Source: an uncultured Alphaproteobacteria bacterium (lineage in GTDB: Bacteria > Pseudomonadota > Alphaproteobacteria > HIMB59 > GCA-002718135). Taken from it: a stretch of DNA of 64,000 bases. The translations under genes were made by a program, and so were the position numbers. The notes beneath the pieces are model-generated. The model did not search any database and was not told the origin of the DNA. It saw nothing but the letters and a program-made list of their open reading frames with translations. The stretch covers positions 2,255 through 66,254 of the forward strand of contig CACHBB010000004.1 in assembly GCA_902577945.1 (NCBI GenBank), in the 5' to 3' direction. Position 1 is the stretch's first letter, and each line of letters begins with the position of its first letter. Shown piece after piece: positions 1,133-62,533 of the stretch.

Positions 1133-4100
1133 TTACCACTTATATTGGCCAGTTAAACTCATTCTAATACCAGAATCATTTCCTTCAACGTGATTGTAAT
1201 CATTAATTTGACTAAGGTTGATGCCAATATCAACATTATTACTAAATGATTGCGTATAATTAATACTCATATCTAATTGTCTTCCTGAGCTTTCTAAATC
1301 TATTTCTTTATATGCATAAGGAATATTTCCATCAAGATCTGCTAATCCAGGAATACGAACTTTTAAGGCACCACTTTCAATTCTATTTGGCTGACTAACC
1401 GAGAATGATAACTTGTTTTGTTTACCTTGAAGGTTATGCAATGAAATAGATGCGTTTAAACTTGAACTAATAACATTAGTTGTTCCTTCTATTAAACTAT
1501 GATTTGCATTATCCATTCTTGATTGACCAAGTGTCCCAGAGAAACTTAAAGATAAATTATCAATTCTTTTTCCTAAATTCATACCAGTAAATAAAGAATT
1601 AGGATTTGCATTGCGATATCCTAATGCTCCTTTTCCTTCTGAGAATAAGAATGTATCTTTTTCATCTAGCGTTCCAATCAGGAATTCAACTTTTGTATTT
1701 TCATCTGTATCTAATTCAAAGGAAGCAGCTAAAGTTTCTGTTTTTAATTCATTATCTAATTCCTCACCTTTATATTCAGAGTTATGATATCCTAATACTG
1801 CTTTAATATTTCCTATTGTGTATTCACTATTCACACCAAGACCATTTGTTTTACCAACAAATGGATTACGTTGCGGTCCAAAATAAAAATTATTTCCATT
1901 ATTAAAGCTAGCAAATTTTTGTATTGCTGCATTTGGCGACTCAAGAGTAATATATGCAGTTTTTTCTTCATCCGTTGTATATGATAATGCGTTAGCTGCA
2001 TTAAATTCACTTTCAAATTGTGTGTTATCTTTTATCTGACCAAGTTTAGCTAAATCTTTATTAATATTATAGGCCGGTGGTTTTTGAATTGTCTTTTCAT
2101 CATTTAGAAGAGAAGACATATTAAATTTAAATCCACCATTTAATCCATCATAGAAGTATCCAGTTTCATTTGAAAGTCCTTCACTTATTGCATCTCCCAT
2201 TAAACCAGGTACTGATAATGTTGTTGCGGCAACATCATATCTAGTTTCTGATAAATATGTTTGATCGTTATTTCCATTATTTTGACCTACGTGATTTGTG
2301 TTACCTGTAGTTATAGAGGCAGGATTGGCATTAGATGTAATTGGAGACATTGCTGCCATGAAATCAGGTAGTCCATGACCCCATGTATTATGATATCCGT
2401 GTTTAATGCTAGCTCCATGTGTTGTAAATGTAGTATTACCAGCAGGAGTGAACCAACCATTATTTGCTGAAGCTAAAATTCTATCTACGATTTGCTCTGG
2501 TGTATGATTAGGAAATGCCTGTTTAACTAATGCAACTCCACCTGCTACCATTGGCGCTGTATAAGACGATCCCCCAACTTGCAAAGTTGCATAATATGAA
2601 GTTCCAGTAGATTCATCATAATAAGTTTGATGATTTGTTGCATAACTATCTGCTGTGAGGCAAAACTCTCGTGCTTTACCACAAGGATTTCCATAGAGAG
2701 TAAACTCAGATTCAGTAATACCAGACATATCTGTGCCAGTAAAATCTGCCCAAATAACTGACAACCAAGCATCGGATAAATCTTCTAAAGAATTACCTAA
2801 ATTATCAGTACCACCATTGTACCAATATGGTAACGCAGCTAACCAGGAAGCGTCACTATCTGTGCTATAATTTCCATTCGCAAAAACAATTACACCAGAT
2901 TGCTGAAAATTATCTAAAGCAGTTACGTATGTCTGCCAATCACTAGTTTGTGCTGCTGGAACACTTGCATTACCACTAAAGTTATATCCAGCAATTTGAT
3001 CCATTGTAAACGATGCTTTATTATTGTCATACAAGGTTTGAAACTCTGTAGCGTCTTTCATAGATGTAGAAGTATCTTTTTGACCCCAACTATTATTTGA
3101 AGCGATCGCACTGTAACCTCTTGCAGCATCTAGATCTGCTGCAAAGTCATCACCATCATAAGTTCCTTGTGTATCGGGTATTGATGAAAGTACTAAATCA
3201 GCATCTGGTGCAACGCCAGAAAATAAACTTGATGTACCTGCAGTATTATCTCCAGCAGCAAATGTTGCAACAGCGTTACAATGATAATCTGTTGCAGTAT
3301 CATTTTGGAATGTACTTTCACCTGAACCTCCATCATCAAGGTTATAAATTGTTTTATTATTAAAAACGGGTACGTTAGTATTGCAGTTAAAATCAGCTAT
3401 ATGAATTGTTTGACCAACACCAGTTAAATAATTTGATCCATCTGTCATAGCTTGAACCTCATTTATTCTCATTTGAGTATATGGATGCACAGAACTTCCA
3501 ACAAGATGAGTATCAATATTTGAATATTGAGCATCAGATGCAACACTCGAACTTGTTACTGAATCAGACCCACTATCTGCAAATGCAGTAGCTGTTCTTA
3601 ATGCATATTCTGTTATCGTGATGGAAACAGAGGTTGTTCCTGAAGTAGAAGAGTCAGCTCCTGAAACACTTGAAATAGATATCGTTGCTGTCTCTGATCC
3701 TTCATTAACTGTATCTTCAGTTGGATTAAATGTTGCCGTACCTGTTGTAGCTCCAGCACTAATAGTTATGTTTGAAATTTCAGCATAATCACTTGTTTCT
3801 GTTGCTGTACCACTTGTTCCTATTACAACAGTTATGTCTTCATCCGCTACTTGTGTTGAGGTTGCTGTTAAGGTTATATTAGATCCATTATCATAAACAC
3901 TTGTACTACTGGTACTCAACGATACTGTTGGTGCAGATTCATTTTCTGTAATAGTAATAGTTTGTGTTTGAGTTCCATCTTCTAGTACTCCTGATTTACC
4001 AGAAACAGTATTTATACTAACTGTAACAGCTTCATTACCTTCATATACTGAGTCGTCCTCTGGAGTAAAATTAACTGTTCCCGTTGTGCTAAGAGCAGAA

Positions 4101-7100
4101 ATAGTAATATTATCCACACTACCACTTCCATCTGTAAAATCTGTTCCTTCTGTTGCACCGGAGAACGAAAGATCAACAGTAATATTTTCATCTGTTGCTC
4201 CACTTAAGGTTGCGGTCATAACGACAGAAGAGCCTGAATTTTCGGCTATACTTGAAGAAGCAACACTTAATGCTACAGTAGGAGCACTATCATCTTCAGT
4301 AATAGTAAAGGTACCTGTTTCATCACCGCTATTAATTGTTGCATTACTTGGACTCGATAAAGTCATCGTAACAGTTTCATTACCTTCATAAACATTATCT
4401 TGAATAACTGTTACAGGAATATTTCCTGTTGTAGCACCAGCGCTTATTGTTAACGTTCCATCTGTTGCCGTGTAATCACTACCAGCTGTCGCTGTTCCAT
4501 TAGATGAATCATAATCAACTGTCACATCTTTGCCCGAAGCTGCTGATAGAGTTACTGTCATGTTTGTTGATGTACTGCTTTCATTTGTTGATGAAGGACT
4601 GTTAATAGATAATGTAGGAGCACTATCATTATCTGTAATTGTTAAGGTTCCAGTTCCACCTGTGATTGTACCACTTGAAGGGTTACTCAGGGTAATTGTT
4701 ACTGTTTCATTATTTTCATCTAATGTGTCGTTTGTTATTGCTACTGTAAATGTTTTAGAAGTGTCCCCAGCACTAAATGTTAATGTACCATTTGTAGTTG
4801 TGTAATCTGAACCTGCTGTTGCTGTACCAGCAGATGTTGCATATTGTATTGTCTGGGAGGAAGAATATGCACTGCTCAAAGCCACCGTAATAGTGGCATT
4901 ACCAACATCTTCTGCAACAGTAACATCTGCTACTGAGAAATTACCACTGTCATCATCAGTTATAGTTATAGTAACAGATTGATTACCATCCTCAGTGGCA
5001 CTTCCCCCAGATACTGTATCAATTGCAATCGTAGCTGTTTCATTTCCTTCAACAGTTGAATCATTAGTTGGTGTAAAATTAGCTGTCGTTGTCGTCGATC
5101 CAGCACTTATTGTCATATCATCTATTGTACCACTACCATCCGTATAATCAGTTCCCTCTGTTGCGGTACCGCTTGTGCTTAAGGCAACAGTTACATCAGC
5201 TGTTGTTGCAACTGATAAGGTAGCTGTTAATGTAAGTGAAGTACCAGCATTCTCGGCAATAGAAGTATCACTAGTAGTAAGAGTTACTGTTGGTGCTGAG
5301 TCACCATCTGTTATTGTAATGGTTATTGATTGCGTTCCACTTTCTGTTGCGCCTCCCCCTGATACATTTGACATACTTACAACAAGAGTTTCATTTCCTT
5401 CATAAAGAGAGTCAGCTGTTGGATCAAAACTATAACTCGCTTGAGTATTACCAGCATTAATAGTGATATCACCAGATGCTAAATAATCACTGGAATAATC
5501 TGCTGAACTTGCCGTTCCACCCAAAGTGACACTTACTGTAACTGTCTGAAACGTAGCTCCAGACAGTATAGCTGTTATACAGCTTGCTCCCGCACTTTCA
5601 GAGACAGTTGATGAAATAGAATTTGTATTACTACAATTGTTTAAGGTCATAGTAACTGTTGGTGCACTCTCATCATCTGTTATTGTTATGGTAACTTCTT
5701 GCGGTGTACTATTTTCTGCTACTCCTGTTTTTCCTGATACACTATTTATAGCAATTACCGCTGTTTCATTAGACGTTGCATCATAGATACTATCATTTGT
5801 TGGAGTAAACGAAACAGTTCCTGTTGTTGCACCAGCACTAATAGTAATATCAGAAAGATTACCATAATCTGTTCCTTCAGTCGCTGTTCCCGAAGTATCT
5901 AAAGTAACTGTAATGGCAGAGTCTGTTGTACCACTTAAAGTTGCCGTCAATGTTAAAGAAGATCCTGCATTCTCAGCAATACTTGTAGCACTTACTGCCA
6001 AAGTAACAGTTGGTGCACTTTCGTCATCTGTTATTGTTATAGTAACTTCTTGCGGAGTACTATTTTCTGCTACTCCTGTTTTTCCTGATACACCGTTTAT
6101 AGCAATTATGGCTGTCTCATTACCTTCGTAAACAGAATCATTAGTTGGGTCAAATGTAACAGTTCCTGTCGTTGCACCAGCACTAATAGTAATATCATCA
6201 AGATTTGATGTACCACCATCATCAGAATAATCAGTTCCCTCTGTTGATGTACCTGAAGTATCAAGGGCAACAGTAATATCTTCATCTGTTGTTCCACTTA
6301 ATGTTGCTGTTAGAGTAATAGTTGAACCAGAATTTTCAGCTATTGATGATGCGTCTACGGCTAAAGAAACTACAGGCGCAGATTCATCTTCAGTGATTGT
6401 TACAGTGACAGATTGAGAACCACTTTCAGTTGCACTACCTCCTGACACACCTGAAATAGATATGCCGGCTGTTTCATCTCCTTCATACACATTATCATTT
6501 GTTGGATCTACTGCTGCCGTTCCTGTTGTAGAACCAGCACTTATTGTAATATCTGAAACCGTTGCAAAGTCAGTGCCTTCTGTACCTGTTCCCCCTGTAC
6601 CATCAATAGTAACCGTTACGTCTTGAAATGTTGCATTCGATAACGTTGCAGTAATTGCAACAGTACTAGAAGAATCTTCATCTATAGCATCTGCACCTTT
6701 TGATAATGTAACTGTTGGAGCGCTTTCATCATCCGTAATTGTTATTGTTACATTTTGTGTTCCATCTTCAGTGGCGCTACCACCAGACACACCACTGATA
6801 TCTATTGTTGCTGTCTCATTTGAAGTTGCATCATAGATACTATCATCTGTTGGAGTAAAATTAACGGTTCCTGTTGTCGAGCCAGCAGAAATTACAATAT
6901 CATCAATTGATCCACTTCCATCGGTGTAATCCGTTCCCTCAGTTGCTGTGCCAGAAGTTGATAGAGCAACAGTGACATCAGCAGTTGTTGCTACAGATAG
7001 AGTTGCAGTTAGTGTTAACGATGAACCAGCATTCTCTGCAATGGATGTTGCACTTGTTGAAAGGGTTACAGTTGGTGCTGATTCATTATCCGTAATCGTT

Positions 7101-10100: not shown

Positions 10101-13100
10101 GAGCCATCGGTATAATCTGTACCTTCAGTCGCTGTTCCCGAAGTATCTAAAGCAACGGTAATATCTGCATCTGTTGTACCAGATAATGTTGCCGTTAAGG
10201 TTAAAGATGATCCTGCATTCTCCGCAATAGTTGTATCACTTACTGCTAAAGTAACAGTTGGTGCACTTTCATCATCCGTTATTGTAATAGTTACTGATTG
10301 TGTTCCGTCTTCACTTGCATCTGCTCCTGATACACCGTCAATAGAAACTATTGCTGTTTCACTTCCTTCATAAACACTATCATTGGTTGGTGTAAATAAT
10401 ACAGTTCCAGTTGTTGAATTAGCGGAAATAGTTATGTCATTTAAATTTCCACTTCCATCGGTATAATCGGTTCCCTCTGTGCCTGTTCCACCAGTTCCAA
10501 TTGTAACTGTTACATCTTCATCTGCTTTTCCAGATAGTGTCGCTGTAATAGTAAGAGATGATCCTGCATTCTCTGCAATACTATTTGCACTAACACTTAA
10601 AGCAACTGTTGGTGCACTTTCATCCTCTGTTATTGTAATGGTTACTGATTGTGTTCCACTCTCTGTAGCGCCACCTCCTGAAACAGATCCAATAGAAATA
10701 ATAGCTGTTTCATTTCCTTCGTAAATGGCATCATTTGTTGGTGTAAAATTAACGGTACTTGTTGTACTACCGGCGCTAATAGAGATGTCATCAACATTAC
10801 CACTTCCATCAGTGTAGTCTGTTCCTTCTGTTGATGTACCACCTGTATCAATACCAACAGTTACTGTTTCATCAGTTGCACCAGATAAGGTTGCTGTTAA
10901 AGTTAATGATGTCCCTGCATTTTCTGCAATACTTGTATCGCTAACAGAAAGTGTTACAGTTGGTGCAGATTCATCTTCTGTTATTGTAACGGTAACAGAT
11001 TGAGAACCACTCTCACTAGCACTTCCGCCGGAGACGCCATCAATCGTAATAGTTACAGTTTCATCATCTTCATAAATATTATCATCAGTTGGATCAACAG
11101 ACGTTGTGCCTGTTGTGCTACCTGCACTAATAGTAATATCAGAAATAGTTGCATAATCTGTTCCTTCTGTTCCACCTGATGCACCAATTGTAACGGTAAC
11201 ATCTTGGTATGTTGCATTTGATAATGTTGCGGTAATCGTAACAGTACTAGAAGAATCTTCATCAATAGCTGGAGCACCTCTTGTTAGTGTTACTGTTGGT
11301 GCACTTTCATTATCGGTAATAGTAATTGTTACTGATTGAGTTCCATTTTCTAATGCATCACCTCCTGAAACTGTATCAATGGACACCGTTGCTGTTTCAT
11401 TTGATGTTGCATCATAAATACTATCATCTGTTGGCGTAAAAGTTGTCGTTCCTGTTAATGATCCAGCAGTAACAGTAATATTCGACAAAGATCCATAATC
11501 TGTTCCTTCAGTAGCACTACCAGATGTACCAAGTGTAACGGTAACATCTTCTGATGCCGTTTTAGATAGCGTTGCCGTTAAGGTTAACGTTGAACCTGAA
11601 TTTTCTGCAATCGATGCTGAGCTCACAGTTAACGTAACTCGAGGAACACTTTCGTCATCTAAAATACTAATGGTAACAGATTGCGATCCACTCTCTGTAG
11701 CACCACCACCACTGACACCACTAATGGCAATTGTTGCAGTAACAGTATCTGTTTCATCGGAGTCATCGGTTGGATCAAAAGTTGCTGTTCCTGTTGTGGA
11801 ACCAGCACTAATAGTAATATCAGATATATTACCATAATCCGTTCCCTCTGTTGCCGTACCAGATGTACTAATTGCAATAGTTACATCTTGATAAGTTGCA
11901 TTTGATAGTGTCGCTGTTAACGTAATAGTTGAAGCAGAATTTTCTGCAATACTAGTTGATGATGCTGCTAATGTAACAGTGGGTGCACTATCATCATCTG
12001 TTATTGTAATTGTTACTGATTGTGAACCACTCTCACTAGCACTTCCACCTGAAACACCACTAATAGCAATGGTGGCAGTCTCATCGGATGCCGCATCATA
12101 CAAACTATCATTTGTAGGTGTAAAGCTTACTGTACCTGTTGTTGATCCAGCCGAAATAACAATGTCATCTAAATTTCCTGAACCATCGGTGTAATCCGTT
12201 CCCTCAGTTGCGGTACCACTTGTACTTAAAGCAACAGTGACATCAGCTGTTGTTGCAACTGATAACGTTGCAGTCAGTGTTAACGAAGAACCAGCATTCT
12301 CTGCAATTGTATTATCACTTGTTGCAAGTGTGACGGTTGGCGCTGATTCATTTTCTGCAATTGTAACACTTACTTGTTGTGTTCCATTTTCAGTAACACC
12401 AGATTTTCCTGAAACACTTCCAATATCAATGGTCGCTGTTTCATCTCCTTCATAAATATTATCATCTGTTGGATCGAGTGTTGACGTACCTGTTGTTGCA
12501 CCTACACTAATGGTAATATCCGAAATTGTTCCATAGTCTGTTCCCTCTGTTGCGGTACCAGATGTATCTAGTGCGACGGTAACAGCTGTATCTGTTACAC
12601 CAGAAATAGTCGCCGTTAATGTGATAGTAGAAACAGAATTTTCATCTATTGACGCTGCACTTCTTGTTAACGTAATAGTTGGTGCTGATTCATCTTCAGA
12701 GATCGTAATAGTAACAGATTGTGAACCACTCTCACTAGCATCAGCTCCCGAAACACTACTAATAGCAATTATTGCCGTTTCATCACCTTCATACACACTG
12801 TCATTTGTTGGTGTGAAATTTACTGTACCAGTTGTAGATCCAGCACTGATTGTAATGTCATCTATATTCCCTGACTCATCTGTATAATCGGTTCCTTCTG
12901 TAGAAGTTCCAGAAGTAGATAAAGCAACGGTTACAGCTTCATCGGCAGCACCTGATAACGTAGCAGTAATTGTTAAAGATGATCCAGCATTTTCGGCAAT
13001 ACTTGTTGCACTAACACTTAAAGCTACTGTAGGTGCAGATTCATCTTCTGAGATAGTAATAGTAACAGATTGAGAACCACTTTCACTAGCTCCTCCTCCA

Positions 13101-50904: not shown

Positions 50905-51414
50905 ATGACCAAATTAATAAAATTATTAGTAATTCCATCAATAATAAGTTTTGTACTAATTTCTTGCAATACCTCATCTCCAAATAAGGTAAAAAAATCT
51001 GATGCACAGAAAATAACTAATATAGAATATGGAACAATCAAAACCTCTCTTCCAGTAAAAATAGAAGGTGAAAGTGATTGGATTGGCGCAACTGCAGGAG
51101 CAATGATTGGGGGTCTTTTAGCATCTCAAATATGTGGAGAAGAAGAAATTCTAGGAACTAAGTGTCAAGATATTGCTATAGTATATGGAACAATTGGTGG
51201 AGCAGCTATGGGTTCAGTAATACAAGCTAAAATTGGTAATCATGATGGATTCCAGTATATAGTAAATATTGATCAATGTGGTAATGACAATTCTAACTGT
51301 AAAAATGATCAAGAGAAAGCTTTTGTGCAAGGAGATGATAATGCTCTTCCAAATGGTCAAAGAGTTGTAATAATCTACGGTGATATAATAAGAGTTATGC
51401 CTTATGAAGAATAG
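50905..51414 (+). CDS. glycine-zipper outer-membrane lipoprotein (SlyB-like)
   Basis: Lipobox LISC; GATAGAMIGG and GTIGGAAMG glycine zippers; VQG.....GQRV. Confidence 0.8.
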   Translation: MTKLIKLLVIPSIISFVLISCNTSSPNKVKKSDAQKITNIEYGTIKTSLPVKIEGESDWIGATAGAMIGGLLASQICGEEEILGTKCQDIAIVYGTIGGAAMGSVIQAKIGNHDGFQYIVNIDQCGNDNSNCKNDQEKAFVQGDDNALPNGQRVVIIYGDIIRVMPYEE

Positions 51415-52264
51415 TTTAGTAAAATTCATTTTTTGCTTTCTTTTATTATTACCATTTAACCTAAATGCAGAATTAATTTTTGAAGACAATTTTCCAAAAG
51501 ACATACAAGGTATTTGGAGCGATGATTGCAGCGCAGAATATCAAGTCTTCATAATATCAAATAACACAAGTATGTGGATTGATGATACATATGTTGGGTT
51601 TAATGTATCGAAAACCTCAAAGGTAAAAGAATGGTCAGCATATAAATGGGGTGAATTAGATGGTAGTTATTATTATTTTTTAAAAAAAGATGGTGATAAT
51701 TTACTTGAAGTTACTGCTCCTGATGATTGGGATGGTATAGATTATTCTTTTTTAAATTCGTCAGAGTATTCAGTTTATGAAAAATGCGAGTCAATACCTG
51801 GTGTCTTTCAAATTATTTATGGTGAAATTATTAATTTAATGAATTCTCAATTAATTGAAACATGTAATAATGATAATAATCCTGCAAATTGTATTAATGA
51901 AACTTTTGAATTTTTAGATGTATCTCAAGATGATGAATTGTCAGTAGCGGAATTAACTCGTGCAGCAAGAATAGCTATATACTTTACATTTATTGATAAA
52001 AGACGAGACGAAGATAGAGATATAGGTTTTGCGACCTACACTACAACATCACTTATATTTCCTGCGTTATCAAAAATTATAATAGGGAATTATGATTATG
52101 ATAATTCAAATACAATTTCTTTAAAAGAAATTTATACGGATCGTATTGATACATTAGATTATCAAAATTTATTTAAAGAAAATTTAAAAGGAATAGATCC
52201 AGAAGAATTAAGAAGATTAATTGAAAACTTAGATTTTTTAAAGTCATTACTAATGTTAAATTAA
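51404..52264 (+). CDS. exported hypothetical protein with two EF-hand-like loops
   Basis: Signal peptide; loops DVSQDDELSVAE and DYDNSNTISLKE. Confidence 0.65.
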   Translation: MKNSLVKFIFCFLLLLPFNLNAELIFEDNFPKDIQGIWSDDCSAEYQVFIISNNTSMWIDDTYVGFNVSKTSKVKEWSAYKWGELDGSYYYFLKKDGDNLLEVTAPDDWDGIDYSFLNSSEYSVYEKCESIPGVFQIIYGEIINLMNSQLIETCNNDNNPANCINETFEFLDVSQDDELSVAELTRAARIAIYFTFIDKRRDEDRDIGFATYTTTSLIFPALSKIIIGNYDYDNSNTISLKEIYTDRIDTLDYQNLFKENLKGIDPEELRRLIENLDFLKSLLMLN

Positions 52265-52599: not shown

Positions 52600-53574
52600 G
52601 TGAAAAATATAGCCATAATAGGTGCTGGAATGACTGGTTTATCTCTAGCCTATAATCTTCAAAATACTAATATAACTATATTTGATAAGTCTTGGCGAGC
52701 TGGTGGCAGAGCATCTACTAGAAAACATGATGATTTAATATTTGATCACGGAGCACATTATTTATCTCAAAAACATAAAGTTAAACAGCTAAATGATGTT
52801 TTAAATAAATTAAATTTGTTAAAAGAAAAAGAAATCATATTCTATGCTGATTTTAAAAAAAATGAAAAAATTAAAAAAAAGATTTTTGTTGGTAAAAATG
52901 GAATAAATTCAATTCCAAAAGGCATCTTTGAAAATATAAAAATTAATAGTCATTTTAATACTAAAGTTTTAAAAATTTTTAAAAATAAAAAAAACAATTA
53001 CGATTTATACACTGAAAATGAAGTATTTAAAGATTATGATATAGTTTTAGTTTGTATCCCTTTTTTTCAAGCTAAAGAATTAACTACAGATTACATAAAA
53101 TTTTCAAATAATCACATACCTGAATATGATCCAATTTATACACTAATGCTATCTTTTAAAGAAAAAACACATTTAAAAATTGATGGTGGATTAAATTTGC
53201 ATGATGATATTAGTTTTTTTATGAAACAAAATTTCAAATTCCCTAAATTGAAGAGTGAAAGTTGGGTTTTAAATATGAGTAGTGAATATACAAAAAAAAA
53301 TTTAGATATAAGTAATGTTGAATTAGAAAATTATGCTTTTTCAATATTTAAAAAGATATTAAAAGTAGATAATAAACCTTTTTTTATAAAAACCCATCGA
53401 TGGCTATACGCACAAACGAAAACAACATATAATTCATTATCAAAAAAAAATTGGATAAATTCAAAAGATAATAAAATATTCCTTACTGGTGATTGGGTTT
53501 TAGGTAAGAGTTTGAGTGATGCTTGGAATGCTGGTTTGCAATTATCACATTATTTAAAAATATTAGATATTTAA
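52600..53574 (+). CDS. FAD/NAD-dependent oxidoreductase (renalase-like)
   Basis: IIGAGMTG, FDKS..AGGR.STR, FDHGAHY, HRWLYA, GDW. Confidence 0.82.
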   Translation: MKNIAIIGAGMTGLSLAYNLQNTNITIFDKSWRAGGRASTRKHDDLIFDHGAHYLSQKHKVKQLNDVLNKLNLLKEKEIIFYADFKKNEKIKKKIFVGKNGINSIPKGIFENIKINSHFNTKVLKIFKNKKNNYDLYTENEVFKDYDIVLVCIPFFQAKELTTDYIKFSNNHIPEYDPIYTLMLSFKEKTHLKIDGGLNLHDDISFFMKQNFKFPKLKSESWVLNMSSEYTKKNLDISNVELENYAFSIFKKILKVDNKPFFIKTHRWLYAQTKTTYNSLSKKNWINSKDNKIFLTGDWVLGKSLSDAWNAGLQLSHYLKILDI

Positions 53575-53641: not shown

Positions 53642-54532
53642 ATGTGTGGAATAGTTGGTATTTATTTAAAAAAGAAAAATTTACATCAAAAACTTGGCAA
53701 TTACTTGTCTGGTATGCTTGATAATATGTCATCAAGAGGTCCTGATTCTGCTGGCTTTGCCATATATAATAAAAACAACTCATCAAGAACCTACAAATAC
53801 TCTGTTTGTTGTCCTTCAGATTTCGATATAAAGAAATTTGAAATAAGTGTTGGCAATGAATTCAAAGACATCTTAATTAAGAGTGTTTCTGATCATTTAG
53901 TTATTTCAACTAAAACAAGTCCAAAACTTTTTCTTTCATTTTTAGGTAATAATTATAAAGAATTAAAAATAATTGGTTATGGTAAATCTATCGAAATCTT
54001 TAAACAAGTTGGTAACCCAAAAGAAATAGTTAAGAAATTTAAGTTGAACAAATTACAAGGCAGTCATGCAATTGGACATACCCGTATGGCAACAGAGAGT
54101 GCTATTACTTTAGATGGCTCTCATCCTTATTCTACAGGTGAAGATGAATGTTTGGTCCATAACGGATCTCTTTCAAATCATAACAATTTAAGAAGAAAAT
54201 TAATTAAAAAAGGAAAGAAATTTGATTCATTTAATGATACTGAAGTTGCTGCAGGATATATTAGTAATCAATTATCAGAAACCAAATCTATGAAAAAAAC
54301 ACTAACGAAATGTCTTTCAAATTTAGATGGTTTTTACACATTTATAGCAGGTACAAAAAATGGTTTTGCAGTTTTAAGAGATGAAATAGCATGTAAACCT
54401 GCTGTAATTGCTGAAACTAAGGATTATGTTGCAGTTGCATCTGAGTTTCAAGCAATGGCACATCTTCCTGATGTAAATAAAGCAAAAATTTATGAACCAG
54501 AACCTGGAGTAGTTTATACATGGGGAAATTAG
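53642..54532 (+). CDS. glxB: N-methylglutamate synthase subunit A (class II glutamine amidotransferase; MgsA)
   Basis: MCGIVG, RGPDSAG, GHTRMATES, VHNGSLSNH, RD.IACKP. Confidence 0.88.
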   Translation: MCGIVGIYLKKKNLHQKLGNYLSGMLDNMSSRGPDSAGFAIYNKNNSSRTYKYSVCCPSDFDIKKFEISVGNEFKDILIKSVSDHLVISTKTSPKLFLSFLGNNYKELKIIGYGKSIEIFKQVGNPKEIVKKFKLNKLQGSHAIGHTRMATESAITLDGSHPYSTGEDECLVHNGSLSNHNNLRRKLIKKGKKFDSFNDTEVAAGYISNQLSETKSMKKTLTKCLSNLDGFYTFIAGTKNGFAVLRDEIACKPAVIAETKDYVAVASEFQAMAHLPDVNKAKIYEPEPGVVYTWGN

Positions 54533-55215
54533 AAAACTTAGATTTTAAGAAAAACAGTCTTAGAAATATCAATAATTTTCTCCAAAATATTGATTTTAAA
54601 AAAAATCTAAGAGAGTTTGTAATTAGAAATCCAAGTGGCAATCATGCAATTTGTGCAGGTTTAAAAGAAGATATTTCTGTAAACATCAAAGGACATGTTG
54701 GATATTACTGTGGAGGTATGAATCAAAATGCAAACATAACCATTGAAGGTAACGCAGGTACTGGACTTGGTGAAAATATGATGTCTGGACTAATACATGT
54801 AAAAGGAAATGTTTCACAATCAGCTGGAGCAACAGCTCATGGTGGTACAATAATTGTAGATGGTAACGCTAGTTCAAGATGTGGAATTTCAATGAAGGGT
54901 GTGGACATCATTATCAAGGGTTCAGTCGGTCATATGTCAGCATTCATGGCTCAATCAGGCACTCTATTAATTTGCGGAGATGCCGGTGAAGCTTTAGGCG
55001 ATAGTATTTATGAAACAGTTATTTATATTGCAGGAACACCAAAAAGTTTAGGTGCGGATTGTGTAGAAAAAAAAATAACAAAAAAAGATTTAATTAAAAT
55101 AGATGAATTACTTAATATTGGAAAAATAAAAAAAATTAAATCATCCAAATTTAAAAAATATGGATCTGCAAGAAAATTGTACAACTTTAAAATAGACAAT
55201 GTATCAGAATATTAA
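54520..55215 (+). CDS. glxC: N-methylglutamate synthase subunit B (GXGXG domain; MgsB)
   Basis: GHVGYYCGGMN, ENMMSG, RCGISMKG, GEALGDSIYE, YGSARKLYNF. Confidence 0.9.
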   Translation: MGKLENLDFKKNSLRNINNFLQNIDFKKNLREFVIRNPSGNHAICAGLKEDISVNIKGHVGYYCGGMNQNANITIEGNAGTGLGENMMSGLIHVKGNVSQSAGATAHGGTIIVDGNASSRCGISMKGVDIIIKGSVGHMSAFMAQSGTLLICGDAGEALGDSIYETVIYIAGTPKSLGADCVEKKITKKDLIKIDELLNIGKIKKIKSSKFKKYGSARKLYNFKIDNVSEY

Positions 55216-56562
55216 ATGAAAAATAAAAGACAAAAAAATTCAACAAAACCAAGACAATCATGGACTTTTGATGAATACACCAACTCTGAAATTAGAAGAG
55301 CAGCTGAAACTGGTATTTATGATATTAGGGGCGGCGGTTCAAAAAGAAAATTACCTCATTTTGATGATTTGCTTTTCTTGGGAGCATCAATGTCCAGATA
55401 TCCATTAGAAGGATATAGAGAAAAATGCTCTACTGATGTCATATTGGGCACTAGGTATGCAAAAAAACCTATTGAATTGAAGATACCAATTACAATAGCA
55501 GGAATGAGTTTTGGCGCACTCTCAGGCCCTGCTAAAGAGGCTTTAGGTAGAGGTGCTTCAATCGCTGGCACATCTACCACAACTGGTGATGGAGGAATGA
55601 CAAAAGAAGAAAGAGGTCAATCAAAAACTTTAGTTTATCAGCTTTTGCCTTCAAGATATGGAATGAATCCAGATGATTTAAGAAAAGCAGATGCTATAGA
55701 AGTGGTTATTGGTCAAGGTGCAAAACCAGGTGGTGGAGGAATGTTACTTGGTCAAAAAATTTCAGACCGTGTAGCCGAAATGCGCACATTACCAAAAGGA
55801 GTAGATCAAAGATCAGCTTGCAGACACCCAGATTGGACTGGTCCAGATGATTTAGCAATAAAAATAACAGAATTAAGGGAAATAACTCAATGGAAGGTTC
55901 CAATTTTTGTAAAAATTGCAGGTGCACGTCCCTATTATGATACAGCTCTAGCTGTTAAAGCTGGTGCAGATGTCGTAGTTCTTGATGGAATGCAAGGAGG
56001 AACTGCCGCTACACAAGAGGTGTTCATTGAAAATGTTGGTCAACCTACCCTAGCCTGTATTAGACCCGCAGTAGATGCGTTACAAGACTTAAACGTTCAT
56101 AGAGAAGTTCAATTAATTATTTCTGGTGGAATTAGAAACGGCGCAGATGTTTCAAAAGCATTAGCTCTCGGAGCAGATGCCGTATCAATTGGTAGTGCTG
56201 CAATGATTGCCATTGGTGATAATGATCCAAAATGGGAAAAAGAATATAACAGAATTGGTTCAACAGCAGGTGCATACGATGATTGGCACGAAGGTAATGA
56301 TCCAGCAGGTATCTCTACTCAAGATCCAAAATTAATGAAAAGATTAGATCCTAAAAAAGCTGGTAAAAAATTATCAAATTATCTTAAGGTGATGACTCTT
56401 GAAGCTCAAACTATTGCTAGAGCATGTGGTAAAAATGATTTACATAACTTAGAACCAGAAGATTTGTGTGCTTTAACTGTAGAAGCAGCTGCAATGGCGA
56501 GAGTTCCTCTAGCTGGTACAAACTGGATACCTGGATCTGACCAAAAGAATAATTTAACTTAA
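55216..56562 (+). CDS. glxD: N-methylglutamate synthase subunit C (FMN-binding glutamate synthase-like; MgsC)
   Basis: SRYPLEGYRE.C, AGMSFGALS, GQGAKPGGGG, RHPDWTGPDDL, PLAGTNWIPG. Confidence 0.92.
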   Translation: MKNKRQKNSTKPRQSWTFDEYTNSEIRRAAETGIYDIRGGGSKRKLPHFDDLLFLGASMSRYPLEGYREKCSTDVILGTRYAKKPIELKIPITIAGMSFGALSGPAKEALGRGASIAGTSTTTGDGGMTKEERGQSKTLVYQLLPSRYGMNPDDLRKADAIEVVIGQGAKPGGGGMLLGQKISDRVAEMRTLPKGVDQRSACRHPDWTGPDDLAIKITELREITQWKVPIFVKIAGARPYYDTALAVKAGADVVVLDGMQGGTAATQEVFIENVGQPTLACIRPAVDALQDLNVHREVQLIISGGIRNGADVSKALALGADAVSIGSAAMIAIGDNDPKWEKEYNRIGSTAGAYDDWHEGNDPAGISTQDPKLMKRLDPKKAGKKLSNYLKVMTLEAQTIARACGKNDLHNLEPEDLCALTVEAAAMARVPLAGTNWIPGSDQKNNLT

Positions 56563-57819: not shown

Positions 57820-58521
57820 ATGACTAAATTATTATTTTATATTTTACCGTTTTTGTTAGTTTTTCTCCCAAGCTTATGGGTAAACTATGTTTTAAAAAAA
57901 TTTAATGTAACTTTTTCTGATATGCCATTTACAGGGAAAGAATTAGGTAAAATAATACTAGAAGAGCATAACATAAATAACGTTAGCATAAATTCAATAA
58001 AACAATTAGATCATTATAATCCAATAGATAAAAAAATTCACATTTCAGAAGATAAAATTAATAAAAAAAGTATTACTAGTATATCTGTAGTTGCACATGA
58101 AATTGGTCATGCTATTCAAGATAAGTATAATTATAAACCACTTAAATTAAGACAAACTTTAATAGAGAAAACTTCTATCTTACAAAGAATAGGTTCATTT
58201 CTTTTAATTATAGGACTTCCATCAATTTTTGCTTTTACTAAAAGTCCTTTTATTACTTTACTAGCTGGAATTATAATAATGGGATGCCTATCAACGAATG
58301 TTTTAATTCATTTAGTAACACTACCTGTTGAATTTGATGCTAGTAAGAGAGCATTAAAAATTTTAGAAAAATATGTTCCAAAGAAAAATATTAAACAATG
58401 TAGAGCGGTATTGACGGCTGCTGCATTTACTTATTTGGCCCAATCAATAGTCAGTATATTCAGATTAAAAATTATACTGTTATCTTTTGTTAATATTTTT
58501 AAATCACTAATTAGAAGATAA
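57820..58521 (+). CDS. membrane zinc metallopeptidase (YugP-like)
   Basis: DHYNP, AHEIGHA, TLPVEFDASKRA, AAAFTY. Confidence 0.88.
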   Translation: MTKLLFYILPFLLVFLPSLWVNYVLKKFNVTFSDMPFTGKELGKIILEEHNINNVSINSIKQLDHYNPIDKKIHISEDKINKKSITSISVVAHEIGHAIQDKYNYKPLKLRQTLIEKTSILQRIGSFLLIIGLPSIFAFTKSPFITLLAGIIIMGCLSTNVLIHLVTLPVEFDASKRALKILEKYVPKKNIKQCRAVLTAAAFTYLAQSIVSIFRLKIILLSFVNIFKSLIRR

Positions 58522-58562: not shown

Positions 58563-61175
58563 ATGAATATTGCAGAGAGAATTTCATTAGTTTTAATTGA
58601 TAAAGGATTTAATTTAAGTCCTAATTATAAAACAGAAAAAATTATTAATGATGCTTCTAAATTAAAAAAAACATCAGAAGAAATATTAATTGCTAAACAG
58701 CATGGTATTGCAGATAAGCTTTTTATATTAATTAATGGAGAAGCAGAATTTACAAAAGATCATAATAATAAATTATATAAATTAGCTACTTTAAGAGGTG
58801 TGGGAATTCCTCTTGGTGTTTCTGGACTAAATCCACCAAGCAGATATATGGCTGATATTTATGTAAAAGCAAATGCAGAATATATTGAAATTGATCTAAA
58901 CAAACTAAAAGAAATTGAAAATAGTGACCCCTCTTATGCCAGTGTTTTTTATTCATATCTTGTGCTTCAATCAATGAATTTAATATGGTCATCAAGAAAT
59001 TTAAATGATTGTCATTTACAAGATGATATCAGAATGTCTGAAGGAGTTAAAACGGGTGGAGAAATTATTAATACGAAAAGAATAAAAGATACAGCTTTTC
59101 TCGCCTTTCTCAATGATCAAGATTTATTAAAATTATTGAATTATAGTAGTATAAAACTTTTTTCTGCAAATGAATATATAACTTCTGAAGGACAAATATC
59201 AGATGGTATTAATATTCTACTTAAGGGAAAAGTTGATGCATCATTTAATAGTCACAAAAAAAATATTTTAGAAAAAAATACTAGGACAATTGCAAGGTCT
59301 GGAGTTGCTTTGTCACTTTCAGCGGGGTTACATGATATTAAATCTCCTTATACAATAAAGGCAACAAGAGATACGACTATTATAAAATTCTCAAATGAAT
59401 TCATTGATAATTTAATTAAAAAAGATCCAGACTTAGCATTAAAATTTTTAAAACGTCAATTATGGCAATTAGGAAAATATATTCAATCTTCATCAGGTTT
59501 AACTACATATCCTGCTAAAGATGAAGCTGAATTGTTCAATTTTCTTTTAAATGATAATTCTTCAAGAATACCAGTGAATTCTAAACTTTATAATATACCA
59601 CATCTTCTAAAAAACCATTTAACACATTCATTAGCATTTAATATTATTTATGAAGTTGTAGTATCTGGTAATGAAAATGAAAAATCTATTGCCAGTCTTA
59701 TGATAGACGCGATGTCTGGTTTAGAGAAAAAAAATAGATTTTTTAATCAATTAAATAAAATTTATAATAGAGTTGCGACATCTCATGAAGAAATTAATAA
59801 AAAAACTTTGCAGAAACTTACAAATGCAGATTTTGTAAAAGCTTTTGATCAAGTACCTTATGTTATTAAAGGAATGGAAAACTTACCCGAAGAACCAACA
59901 AATATTTTTTTTTATAATCATCTAGCGAGCATTGAAGAAAATACATTAGCTAATGGACATTCATTCAGTATAGATAGTCATTTTATATCAGCTAAAATCT
60001 TGTTTCCAAAATACGGAGATGGAGGTCAAAGGATAGCTAGGTATAGTAGAAATACAGAATTTTGGCGATATAATTATTATGAAAATTTAGATTATATTTT
60101 TGTTCACACACCTGAATCTGATAGACTAGAAGAAACCAATTTAGAAAAAAAGAAAAGAAAAGAAAAACTATTTGTAGAAACACAAAATATTTTTGATCAA
60201 AATAGACCACTTGTTATTGCTCCAGAAGGAACTAGCGAAACTGAAGATAATATAACCGTTAACTCTCCAGGGCCTTTGAAGCCTGGTGCATTTTTATTAG
60301 CTAATCAACTAGAGCCAGAACCCTTTCTAGTTCCAATTGCTCTAGCTAATTTTGATCATTCAATATCAAATACAGTTTATTCAGCGATAATCAAAGAACC
60401 AATAAAAATAAATGATTATGTTAAAGATATTAAAAACAAAAAAGAATTAGAAAAATTTTTAAATAATTATAGAGTAAAATTTAAAAGTTATGTTCAAGAA
60501 GCAATTGAATTGGCAAAAAATATTCATAATGATAAAAAAAAATTAGATAATGTGGAAACAAATATTAATCTTGTTAGCCCCATTGAAGAGGAATATGAGG
60601 CTGATGTAAGAGAATTAGAAATTAATCTTCATAATAAGGAATTAGAAAACAAAAAAACAATCTTATATGGAAGTTCAACTTTTAAAGATTGGATAAATGC
60701 AGATAAGGATTTATCAATTAATAATCTAACAAACCTGGGCTTTGGGGGTTCAACTTTAGTAGCTTGTAGAAATTATTTCAATAGAATTGTTGTTCCGTAC
60801 AGTCCTGATACAATGTTATTTTATGCTGGTGATAACGACATTGGTAGTGGAACTTCTGCTAGTGAATTATTAAGTGAATTTATTTTACTTACTTCTGAAG
60901 TTAGTGAGAAAATTCCACATACTAGATGTTTTTTTATTTCAATCAAACCGAGTATTTTTAGAAAAGATTATCTAGATATTATTTTAGACGCTAATGAAAA
61001 AATAAAAAACGCTATCAATCATTTAGGCCAATGGAAATATATTGATTTATGTTCTCCAATGTTAGAAACAGGATATGAAAAATTTTATGGTGATGACCCA
61101 CTACATATGAACGTCTTAGGTTATAGTTTACTTAGTAAGTTGATAAGAGATGAATTAGCTGTATTTAACAGTTAG
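58563..61175 (+). CDS. multidomain protein: two cNMP-binding-like domains + PlsC-type acyltransferase + SGNH/GDSL hydrolase
   Basis: cNMP folds (KQHGIADKLFILINGEAE; SEGQISDGINILLKGKV). Acyltransferase motifs NH...HSFSID, IAPEGT, KPGAF, VPIAL. SGNH motifs YGSS, GFGG, AGDND, DPLH. Confidence 0.8.
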   Translation: MNIAERISLVLIDKGFNLSPNYKTEKIINDASKLKKTSEEILIAKQHGIADKLFILINGEAEFTKDHNNKLYKLATLRGVGIPLGVSGLNPPSRYMADIYVKANAEYIEIDLNKLKEIENSDPSYASVFYSYLVLQSMNLIWSSRNLNDCHLQDDIRMSEGVKTGGEIINTKRIKDTAFLAFLNDQDLLKLLNYSSIKLFSANEYITSEGQISDGINILLKGKVDASFNSHKKNILEKNTRTIARSGVALSLSAGLHDIKSPYTIKATRDTTIIKFSNEFIDNLIKKDPDLALKFLKRQLWQLGKYIQSSSGLTTYPAKDEAELFNFLLNDNSSRIPVNSKLYNIPHLLKNHLTHSLAFNIIYEVVVSGNENEKSIASLMIDAMSGLEKKNRFFNQLNKIYNRVATSHEEINKKTLQKLTNADFVKAFDQVPYVIKGMENLPEEPTNIFFYNHLASIEENTLANGHSFSIDSHFISAKILFPKYGDGGQRIARYSRNTEFWRYNYYENLDYIFVHTPESDRLEETNLEKKKRKEKLFVETQNIFDQNRPLVIAPEGTSETEDNITVNSPGPLKPGAFLLANQLEPEPFLVPIALANFDHSISNTVYSAIIKEPIKINDYVKDIKNKKELEKFLNNYRVKFKSYVQEAIELAKNIHNDKKKLDNVETNINLVSPIEEEYEADVRELEINLHNKELENKKTILYGSSTFKDWINADKDLSINNLTNLGFGGSTLVACRNYFNRIVVPYSPDTMLFYAGDNDIGSGTSASELLSEFILLTSEVSEKIPHTRCFFISIKPSIFRKDYLDIILDANEKIKNAINHLGQWKYIDLCSPMLETGYEKFYGDDPLHMNVLGYSLLSKLIRDELAVFNS

Positions 61176-62533
61176 TTGAATTGAGGAAGATAATTTTTAT
61201 GAGCATTTAATAATTGATCAACCATTGAATATATTTCATCAATAGAGAGAATGGAAGAAGTCAAAGGATCTAGCATTGCTGCATGATAGATATGCTCTCT
61301 CTTCTCAGTAATTGCAGCCTCAGCAGTTAAAATTTGAACATTAATGTTAGTGCGCATTAAAGCAGTTAATTGTTCGGGTAAATTGCCAATTTTTTGAGGT
61401 TTGTATCCATCAGAATTAATTAAACAAGGAACTTCTACACAGCAATTATCTGGTAGATTGTTAATTAAATTACTATTCATAACATTCGCATTAATTGTAA
61501 TAGTCTTATTATTTGTTACAGCCTCCATTATATGTGAGGCATATTCATGGCTTAATTTTAAAGGTTCATTTTGTAAAGGCGTAATGTCCTTTTCTAATTC
61601 TTTCCAGGTTTTAGCATGATATTCACATCTATCTAAATACTCATCAATTGGAATTTGATACTTGTTAATTATGTCATCTCTATTATTTTTTATAAACCAT
61701 GGAACATATTCAGCAAAATGCTCACTTGATTCAGTTACAAAATAACCAAATTTTCGTAAAATTTCATACCTAACTTTTTCATGTAGCTTTTTATTAGACT
61801 CATAATGTACTTTTTTACTTCGAGATGAAATTTTTTTATCATTAACTATGTCATCAGCTAAATTTTTTAGTTGAGGATAAAGATCAATTTTTGATCCATT
61901 TTGTTTTTTTTCAAATTTTAAAAAAAATGCCATATGGTTAATTCCAGCACATTTAAATTCAATATTTGAAATTTCTTCATTTAAATCATCAGCAAGCATC
62001 TCAGCAGTTCCCTGAACTGAATGACACAAACCTATCGAATTAACTTCTGGATATTTATTTTTAATAGCTATCATATTTGAGCACATTGGGTTCACATATT
62101 GTAACCAAAGACTATTTGGGCAAACTTCCATGATATCTTTTGCTATATCTAATAAAATAGGAATAGTTCTTAAGCCCCTCATGATACCTCCAATTCCTAG
62201 TGTGTCTCCAATCGTTTGCTTGAGTCCATATTTTTTAGGAATATCAAAATCTAGAACAGTTGATGGTTTATAACCACCAACTTGAATAGTTGTTTGCACA
62301 AAATCAGCATTAAGCAAAGCTTCTTTCCTATCGGTGTGTAAGGTTATTTTAGGATTAGCATTGAGTTTAGCAGATACTGTATCAACTAATTCTTTTGCTA
62401 ATTTAAGCCTTTTTTCATCTATATCCATTAAGGATATGTGCATGTTTTTAAATGAAGAAATATGCAATAAATCAACAACAATATTTTTAGTAAATACAGC
62501 ACTACCAGCCCCTATTATTGTTAATTTAATCAA
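61172..62533 (-). CDS. melA: GH4 NAD+/Mn-dependent alpha-galactosidase
   Basis: IGAGS.VF, QTIGDTLG.GGI.R.LRTIP, YVNPM, GLCHSVQ, AGINHMAF, VTESSEHFAEYVPWF; TTG start. Confidence 0.92.
   Translation of the reverse strand: MIKLTIIGAGSAVFTKNIVVDLLHISSFKNMHISLMDIDEKRLKLAKELVDTVSAKLNANPKITLHTDRKEALLNADFVQTTIQVGGYKPSTVLDFDIPKKYGLKQTIGDTLGIGGIMRGLRTIPILLDIAKDIMEVCPNSLWLQYVNPMCSNMIAIKNKYPEVNSIGLCHSVQGTAEMLADDLNEEISNIEFKCAGINHMAFFLKFEKKQNGSKIDLYPQLKNLADDIVNDKKISSRSKKVHYESNKKLHEKVRYEILRKFGYFVTESSEHFAEYVPWFIKNNRDDIINKYQIPIDEYLDRCEYHAKTWKELEKDITPLQNEPLKLSHEYASHIMEAVTNNKTITINANVMNSNLINNLPDNCCVEVPCLINSDGYKPQKIGNLPEQLTALMRTNINVQILTAEAAITEKREHIYHAAMLDPLTSSILSIDEIYSMVDQLLNAHKNYLPQFN

Follow-up and report, generated by a model that had tools for sequence, protein, structure and literature searches.

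In a stretch of 64,000 nucleotides from an uncultured SAR11-type marine alphaproteobacterium (contig CACHBB010000004.1; hereafter the window), positions 58563..61175 of the plus strand form one uninterrupted open reading frame (ORF) that starts with ATG and comprises 870 codons plus the stop. Sequence comparison and structure prediction confirm that it encodes a real four-module enzyme, in which a predicted pair of cyclic-nucleotide-binding (CNB) sensor domains precedes an LPLAT-type acyltransferase and a small SGNH esterase. We give about an even chance to the reading that the enzyme is cytoplasmic, either soluble or peripheral, and that it both forms and cleaves an O-acyl ester within a single metabolite pool, governed by a sensor for a small molecule. 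The modules follow each other on the plus strand as CNB-A (about residues 20-150, 58620..59012), CNB-B (about residues 168-305, 59064..59477), a helical linker with the N-terminal acyltransferase helices (residues 316-430, 59508..59852), the PlsC-fold acyltransferase core (residues 431-655, 59853..60527) and the SGNH esterase (residues 695-870, 60645..61172). An initial annotation, made from the letters alone, had proposed just this combination in a single polypeptide, and it is upheld by its conservation as well as by Pfam and structural matches. An assembly chimera is ruled out: among the matches listed, 93 of 120 homologues are full length (855-891 amino acids, aa) and come from many independent assemblies (123 homologues found, 8000 candidates scored). 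Full-length sources include Pelagibacteraceae single-cell genomes, Candidatus Puniceispirillum and Marinomonas mediterranea (P0080), the last on a 4.7-Mb contig.

For the N-terminal region, the annotated two cNMP-binding-like folds within residues 1-305 were recovered by three approaches. The Pfam family cNMP_binding (PF00027) matches residues 199-288 with 37.7 bits against a cut-off of 27.5. In a whole-protein AlphaFold2 model built on 22 full-length homologues (mean pLDDT 85.3, pTM 0.75), residues 1-305 retrieved the tandem CNB modules of PKG and PKA-R as best Foldseek matches (E 6e-12 to 1e-10), and a structure search independent of Foldseek aligned residues 1-142 with the CNB protein 3mdp at Z 15.0; together these point to a tandem beta-barrel CNB fold. 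By profile, the closest solved kin of CNB-A are again 3mdp (8e-14), followed by the heme sensor DNR (6e-10) and then CRP (about 1e-6). The canonical phosphate cassette Gly-Glu ... Arg-Ser/Thr-Ala is present in neither domain. That of CNB-A, PLGVSGLNPPSRYMA, carries Val in place of Glu and Tyr in place of Ser/Thr. G59, G85 and R94 (codon 58842-58844) of CNB-A are invariant across 49 family members spanning phyla, while the Glu position is V, I or W. CNB-B retains the invariant G247 and has neither Glu nor Arg. The cassettes are therefore degenerate as annotated, with Arg kept in CNB-A and both residues missing from CNB-B; what does not hold is that CNB-A lacks both Gly and Glu, since only Glu is gone.

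A sequence search of the Protein Data Bank with the LPLAT profile gave only a marginal match to PlsC (E 0.012), which made a fold search necessary. The acyltransferase was modelled from residues 316-658 with 43 diverse domain sequences from the whole family (pLDDT 93.3, pTM 0.90). This model aligned with Thermotoga maritima PlsC (5kym) at Z 17.8 (root-mean-square deviation 3.8, 214 of 232 residues), and residues 318-652 of the whole-protein model gave Z 15.8 with the same structure. Further matches of the domain model were GPAT1 (8e50, Z 13.7), plastid GPAT (1iuq, Z 13.6), PatA (8.5) and LpxM (7.5); nothing besides LPLATs scored above Z 7.5 and nothing else above Z 7, and Foldseek agreed. The domain thus has the PlsC/GPAT alpha-beta fold. 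Its Pfam match (PF01553, residues 508-593) scores 18.9 bits and stays below the cut-off of 23. Among nine scanned relatives with an LPLAT domain six pass (27.5-32.3 bits) and three lie at 21.3-22.8 bits, and further short forms exceed the cut-off with 27.4-38.9 bits.

In the 43 domain sequences N452, H453, D471 and P554-E555-G556 are invariant, and the family profile aligns 'ifiyNH' with 'IVVANH84' of PlsC and PEGT with the PlsC PEGT block. Because of this invariance and alignment, H453 of the NH motif (59919-59921) is assigned as the conserved catalytic His, paired with D471 (59973-59975), an assignment made from sequence conservation. Seventeen residues lie between the two instead of four, so that motif I in the form NHxxxxD is absent. 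The annotated PlsC blocks at about residues 430-650 are accordingly borne out for NH, PEGT and the fold, and the proposed HX4D in HSFSID (H466-D471) had to be discarded, as the H466 column is Phe in at least 90% of the 43 sequences. In motif III PEG is invariant and T557 nearly so, and a nearly invariant S558 stands where PEGTR has Arg. In PlsC and GPAT this Arg binds the acceptor phosphate. The preceding helices are polar and contain the invariant S340 and E373. All five genomes of the window's subclade encode a separate, ordinary PlsC (236-251 aa, 69-76 bits), and four of the five have one or two more small LPLATs. Because the ordinary PlsC is encoded separately in every one of them, the CNB-LPLAT-SGNH protein is an accessory enzyme and not the housekeeping PlsC.

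In the C-terminal module Pfam Lipase_GDSL_2 (PF13472) matches residues 720-855 with 34.6 bits (cut-off 32.9), and S705 (60675-60677), G728/G729, N758, D845 and H848 (61104-61106), which make up blocks I, II, III and V, are invariant in the 22 full-length homologues. Residues 676-869 of the model superimpose on a sialic acid esterase from Phocaeicola (7pzg) at Z 24.4 (root-mean-square deviation 2.5, 189 residues). Other fold matches were 2hsj (Z 23.8) and PAF-AH Ib (1bwp, Z 22.0), followed by the C-terminal domains of OatA (6vjp, Z 17.7; 5ug1, Z 17.0) and by PatB (7tjb, Z 15.2). Profile comparison named the same relatives, PAF-AH Ib and sialate O-acetylesterases, with E values of 7e-14 to 8e-7. 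Fold and profile score therefore agree on an SGNH enzyme, and the complete set of GSS, G, GDND and DPLH annotated at about residues 695-870 is corroborated.

Along the 870 residues the highest Kyte-Doolittle mean over 19 residues is 1.05. With so low a maximum no transmembrane helix is expected, in agreement with the annotation, and the linker helices are polar and not embedded in a membrane. As regards occurrence in RNA libraries, contigs of 151-230 nt identical to the gene were found in three seawater metatranscriptome runs from three studies (depth 2-4, most of the gene uncovered), and four seawater metatranscriptome runs contained only 5-7% of the sampled words. These matches establish presence in RNA libraries and fall short of proof of transcription, because DNA carry-over is possible and most of the gene is uncovered.

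Comparative evidence for a coupling of the acyltransferase with an esterase comes from the family as a whole. When 1.84 billion representatives were searched, 3262 proteins matched at E <= 0.001, single-domain matches included. Many relatives are short forms of 630-700 aa that cover residues of about 40-652, i.e. two CNB domains and the LPLAT domain with no SGNH domain, and a 457-aa form with LPLAT and SGNH and no CNB domains exists as well. The family occurs in Pseudomonadota, Bacteroidota (Marinoscillum, Persicobacter) and candidate Dadabacteria, always under generic protein names, and it is rare, with a full-length member in only 4 of 400 sampled Pseudomonadota genomes. We scanned metagenome contigs with the short-form alignment and classified the 80 resulting loci by ORFs of at least 80 aa, all-against-all BLASTP clusters and hidden Markov models built from the family alignments. 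SGNH was fused in the same ORF in 17 of them and formed a separate ORF directly downstream in 18 (from overlap with the stop to about 80 nt on). At 27 loci the neighbour was instead AXE1 (PF05448), an acetyl-xylan-esterase-type alpha/beta hydrolase, mostly in divergent orientation, with the called ORFs overlapping to 531 nt apart. Five loci had no esterase despite adequate flanks, the flanks of 12 were too short for assessment, and at one the LPLAT ORF was not called. An esterase partner is thus present at 62 of the 67 assessable loci, and none of the 80 had SGNH and AXE1 together. In a Pfam check of the classes, all 10 AXE1 representatives tested matched AXE1 (105-142 bits) and both split ORFs tested matched Lipase_GDSL_2. 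The Ser/Asp/His triad is invariant among the AXE1 partners, which show no obvious signal peptide. AXE1 was also found near family members in two isolate or metagenome-assembled genomes, G093 and G101, whose short-form proteins are 45% identical; there it lies beside or one gene from the short form. As judged from these sequences, the whole family retains the pairing of its acyltransferase with a serine esterase, whether as fused SGNH, split SGNH or adjacent AXE1. A conserved operon partner besides the esterase was sought and rejected: no other recurrent neighbour occurs in more than seven of the metagenomic loci, and neighbours differ between these loci, the SAR11 clade of 55% identity and G293/G305.

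A maximum-likelihood tree of 82 LPLAT domains resolved two clades, each with an SH-aLRT of 98. The AXE1 clade (39 rows) contains 26 members with AXE1, four with no esterase and nine that could not be assessed; the SGNH clade (43 rows), in which the window protein lies, contains 22 fused and 17 split arrangements, one member with no esterase and three not assessable. On this tree SGNH and AXE1 were exchanged once, and the fused and split states changed into each other at least four times. One exchange of partner type, followed by long retention through deep divergence, argues that what is obligatory is the esterase function and not one specific fold.

Some further observations concern individual family members. 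Two loci with no esterase partner, L148 (396-2015) and L153 (3-1475), have an additional N-terminal extension of about 210 aa in which a Pfam scan found no match, and their CNB and LPLAT parts were called as two ORFs, with a stop or frameshift in between. At L167 (2537-3421, minus strand) and L171 (1550-2434, minus strand), a Polysacc_deac_1 gene (CE4 deacetylase) lies convergently just downstream of an AXE1-clade member whose upstream flank is too short to reveal a possible AXE1 gene; the deacetylase may represent a third type of deacylase partner or a chance neighbour. Downstream of soil-type AXE1-clade members, convergent genes at L174 (3854-4246), L175 (6504-6899) and L180 (4510-5022), all on the minus strand, code for stand-alone proteins of about 170 aa with a single CNB domain.

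The sensor was annotated as responding to a ligand that is possibly not cyclic AMP (cAMP), and the distribution of cyclases favours this. In a census of 80 genomes of the window's order with a completeness of 80% or more, the protein was confined to the window's genus, and so were class III cyclases (PF00211). Among its 37 genomes the protein is present in 26 and PF00211 in 21; 19 have both, seven the protein only, two the cyclase only and nine neither, counts in which related genomes are not independent of each other. Five of the seven protein-only genomes (G000, G016, G028, G039 and G041) make up the window's subclade, whose proteins are 81-100% identical to that of the window. In these five genomes (82-88% complete) class III cyclases (PF00211), class I cyclases (PF01295), CYTH (PF01928, class IV cyclases) and GGDEF (PF00990) were each found in 0 of 5, and the studied protein is the only PF00027 match. 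The two-cyclase segment of 5.7-6.3 kb seen in genome G003 is replaced by about 0.55-0.7 kb in G016, G028, G039 and G041. The absence is no assembly gap, since the flanks are contiguous around the shortened segment in all four genomes that could be judged; in G000 the locus is cut off by the start of contig C4. In G003, from the sister clade, the two class III cyclase genes encode 609 and 428 aa (contig C1, 160686-162515 and 164968-166254; 7686-9515 and 11968-13254 of locus L202); they are about 4 kb apart and lie on the same contig as the CNB-LPLAT-SGNH gene, at a distance of about 45-95 kb.

Comparison of the window gene with L006, L008, L009 and L010 (the genome of L008 lay outside the cyclase census) gave ratios of nonsynonymous to synonymous substitution rates (dN/dS) of 0.13 for CNB-A, 0.10 for CNB-B, 0.05 for the linker, 0.06 for LPLAT and 0.08 for SGNH, all of them rough because dS is near 1. 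By this sequence measure the CNB domains of the subclade are under purifying selection. Since the sensor is selected while no known source of cyclic nucleotides was found in the subclade, the data favour a ligand other than cAMP, cGMP or c-di-GMP, which would be bound with the help of the invariant R94. GGDEF genes near short forms had brought up c-di-GMP as a candidate, which its absence of a source (GGDEF in 0 of 5 genomes) rules out for the subclade. These genes encode an FHA-GGDEF protein, directly upstream on the same strand, and a PAS-GGDEF-EAL protein, two genes away (L116 in G093, 10987-12012, minus strand; L117 in G101, 3316-6843, minus strand), and they hint that some family members reside in second-messenger neighbourhoods.

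Taken as a ligand-controlled cycle, the modules could work together as follows. LPLAT, with H453/D471 and PEGT, would transfer an acyl group from acyl-coenzyme A (acyl-CoA) or acyl carrier protein (acyl-ACP) to a hydroxyl acceptor. The conservation of R490 and R493 makes an anionic acceptor possible, and the change of PEGTR to PEGTS suggests that it may be bound otherwise than in PlsC. SGNH, through S705/D845/H848, could either hydrolyse the ester that LPLAT has made, which would give a switch or timer, or produce a lyso-acceptor for renewed acylation in a remodelling of the Lands type. The balance of the two activities may be set by the tandem CNB module, acting through the conserved helical linker upon binding of an anionic ligand at R94. 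The acyl group that is cycled might be short, as in the eukaryotic pair of lyso-PAF acetyltransferase and PAF (platelet-activating factor) acetylhydrolase, since the likeness of both esterase types is to enzymes for acetyl or short-chain esters: their nearest kin by sequence and modelled structure are sialate O-acetylesterase, PAF-AH Ib and CE7-type AXE1. By this analogy a short-acyl cycle similar to that of LPCAT and PAF-AH appears as plausible as long-chain Lands remodelling. More specifically, and only tentatively, we propose that the module is a self-contained bacterial device for signalling or homeostasis, a ligand-gated cycle in which a small lipid or metabolite is acylated and deacylated, perhaps with a short acyl group. 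It would be a prokaryotic counterpart of the lyso-PAF cycle, its sensor would respond to some metabolite that is no cyclic nucleotide, and it would have been kept in streamlined, cyclase-less SAR11. Several points count against such readings. The likeness to acetylesterase folds does not fix the chain length, and no member of the family has an assigned substrate, donor or ligand; in the loci examined no conserved neighbour except the esterase hints at a pathway. Interchangeability of the esterases rests on a single exchange event plus long retention, and to this are added the five esterase-less loci and the Pfam score of the acyltransferase below its cut-off. With regard to the ligand, the incompleteness of the subclade genomes is a caveat on cyclase absence, the dN/dS values are approximate, and 19 of 21 genomes of the sister clade (about 72% identity) have class III cyclases, so that cAMP control is possible there or ancestrally.

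A classical Lands cycle with long chains, in which SGNH serves as phospholipase A or lysophospholipase and LPLAT re-acylates the lysophospholipid so that fatty acids are swapped on a signal, seems to us rather unlikely. PlsC is the best structural match (Z 17.8), the coupling of esterase and LPLAT is conserved, and some SGNH enzymes are lysophospholipases, the sequence of 7pzg itself having been deposited as 'Lysophospholipase L1'. The counterparts of the PlsC N-terminal helices are however polar, with a hydropathy maximum of 1.05 that leaves no hydrophobic anchor, Ser replaces the Arg that binds the acceptor phosphate, and acetyl esters are the substrates of the nearest relatives of either partner esterase. 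The missing Arg together with the missing membrane anchor also disfavours a plain lysophosphatidate acyltransferase. The annotated writer and eraser pair akin to a one-protein Lands cycle is accordingly supported in part, namely in the coupling of acyltransferase and esterase, whereas opposite action on one lipid, long acyl chains and a lysophospholipid as acceptor are conjectural. It is quite improbable that the esterase is no regulated eraser and acts instead as a TesA-like thioesterase on the donor side, limiting or editing the pool of acyl-CoA or acyl-ACP on which LPLAT draws, or as a proofreader of mis-acylated product. Fusion or adjacency would suit any two steps that share an acyl group, and the SGNH enzymes include acyl-CoA and acyl-ACP thioesterases such as E. 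coli TesA, but the top structural matches are O-acetyl esterases and not of the TesA type, and AXE1/CE7 enzymes are O-deacetylases by annotation.

The OatA and PatB domains among the structural matches of SGNH (6vjp, 5ug1, 7tjb) raise the idea of a transferase that completes a two-step acyl relay to a final acceptor. This we regard as highly improbable, given that these matches lie well below the hydrolases at Z 22-24, that an AXE1 alpha/beta hydrolase can be the partner instead, and that the protein resides in the cytoplasm and lacks an AT3 membrane domain. On the side of the sensor, the CNB domains might bind no ligand at all and serve as a scaffold, for structure or for dimerisation, or else as an autoinhibitory module whose block is lifted by a protein partner or by a membrane. 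The degeneracy of both cassettes and the lack of a cyclase in the subclade would fit, yet R94, G85 and G59 do not vary among the 49 sequences from different phyla, dN/dS is 0.10-0.13, and the 457-aa form identifies the CNB module as an optional addition, as regulators are, which together render a ligand-free module improbable.

The preferred reading, a soluble enzyme that makes and breaks one ester under sensor control, has partial counterparts among known systems. With PlsC/AGPAT (5kym) the protein shares the fold (Z 17.8), the catalytic His of the NH motif and the PEGT block; it differs by the 17-residue gap between His and Asp, by PEGTS, by the lack of a hydrophobic two-helix anchor, by the N-terminal sensor and the C-terminal esterase, and by the presence of a separate housekeeping PlsC in the genome. 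Plastid GPAT (1iuq, 1k30, 8ia1) and GPAT1 (8e50) have the same LPLAT fold (Z 13.6-13.7; Foldseek E 1.5e-6), likewise preceded by an additional helical domain. Plastid GPAT is soluble, as the studied protein appears to be, but both GPATs are 11-14% identical to it and have neither sensor nor esterase. PAF-AH Ib and the bacterial sialate O-acetylesterases (1bwp, 2hsj, 7pzg, 6njc) are the closest SGNH kin and share the complete Ser, Gly, Asn and His set, although they stand alone and block I of the studied protein is GSS, not GDS. In the Lands cycle and in the pair of lyso-PAF acetyltransferase (LPCAT) and PAF acetylhydrolase, an AGPAT-family transferase and an esterase likewise act on one ester. 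The studied esterase is kin to PAF-AH Ib, whereas the eukaryotic pair consists of two separate proteins, so that the likeness is one of analogy only; no PAF-like lipid is known in SAR11. The N-terminal tandem CNB module ahead of the catalytic domains resembles CNB-regulated systems, namely PKA-R and PKG with their tandem CNB (Foldseek E 6e-12), neuropathy target esterase (CNB and patatin) and the mycobacterial cAMP-regulated acetyltransferase. In contrast to these, the cassettes of the studied protein are degenerate, its subclade has no cyclase and its catalytic partners are LPLAT and SGNH; a patatin catalytic domain was looked for in the protein and gave no match, the esterase being SGNH. OatA-type fusions (6vjp, 5ug1; Z 17-17.7) also join an acyltransferase to a C-terminal SGNH domain, but OatA combines a membrane AT3 domain with an extracytoplasmic SGNH transferase, whereas here the domain upstream of SGNH is a soluble LPLAT and no transmembrane segment is present.

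The immediate neighbours of the gene are conserved over short distances only. A Zn_peptidase_2 gene (57820..58521, plus strand) ends 41 nt upstream and accompanies the studied gene throughout the genus. Every one of the 46 loci with upstream DNA contains it (71-89% identity; 49 loci examined); it was not found in the SAR11 clade of 55% identity nor in other lineages, and therefore stands outside the family-wide module. On the other side the studied gene shares its last 4 nt, stop included, with the end of a family-4 glycosidase gene (61172-62533, minus strand). The glycosidase gene is restricted to the closest relatives (four loci), and other genes take its place in the 72% clade. Further upstream, genes for GATase_6/7, GXGXG and Glu_synthase domains follow each other in a row (53642-56562, plus strand) and look like a split, small-subunit-type glutamate-synthase-like set, preceded by an amine-oxidase-type flavoprotein gene (52600-53574). 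An ORF of 286 aa (51404-52264, plus strand) has a weak EF-hand match of 21.9 bits, under the cut-off.

No paper on the CNBx2-LPLAT-SGNH architecture was found in full-text literature searches, whose coverage did not extend to subscription journals; this fits the statement of the initial annotation that no characterised protein with it is known. PMC12419801 mentions all domain words, but in passages that concern other proteins. The CNBx2-LPLAT family is uncharacterised and wide, and the studied protein unites kinds already known, those of CNB-regulated enzymes, LPLATs and SGNH esterases. Our analysis adds the identity of AXE1 as a partner, the tree with its single exchange, the H453/D471 assignment and the evidence for cyclase deletion.

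The near-obligate esterase partner, of two unrelated folds, offers a clean test case, and the cultured carrier Marinomonas mediterranea makes the idea testable. A CNB sensor that persists without a cyclase bears on the re-use of CNB folds for other ligands. SAR11-type bacteria have very small genomes and few regulators, and because such genomes keep this regulated enzyme of 870 residues under purifying selection, it likely matters for their membrane or metabolite homeostasis. More widely, the family could represent regulated turnover of acyl esters in bacteria.

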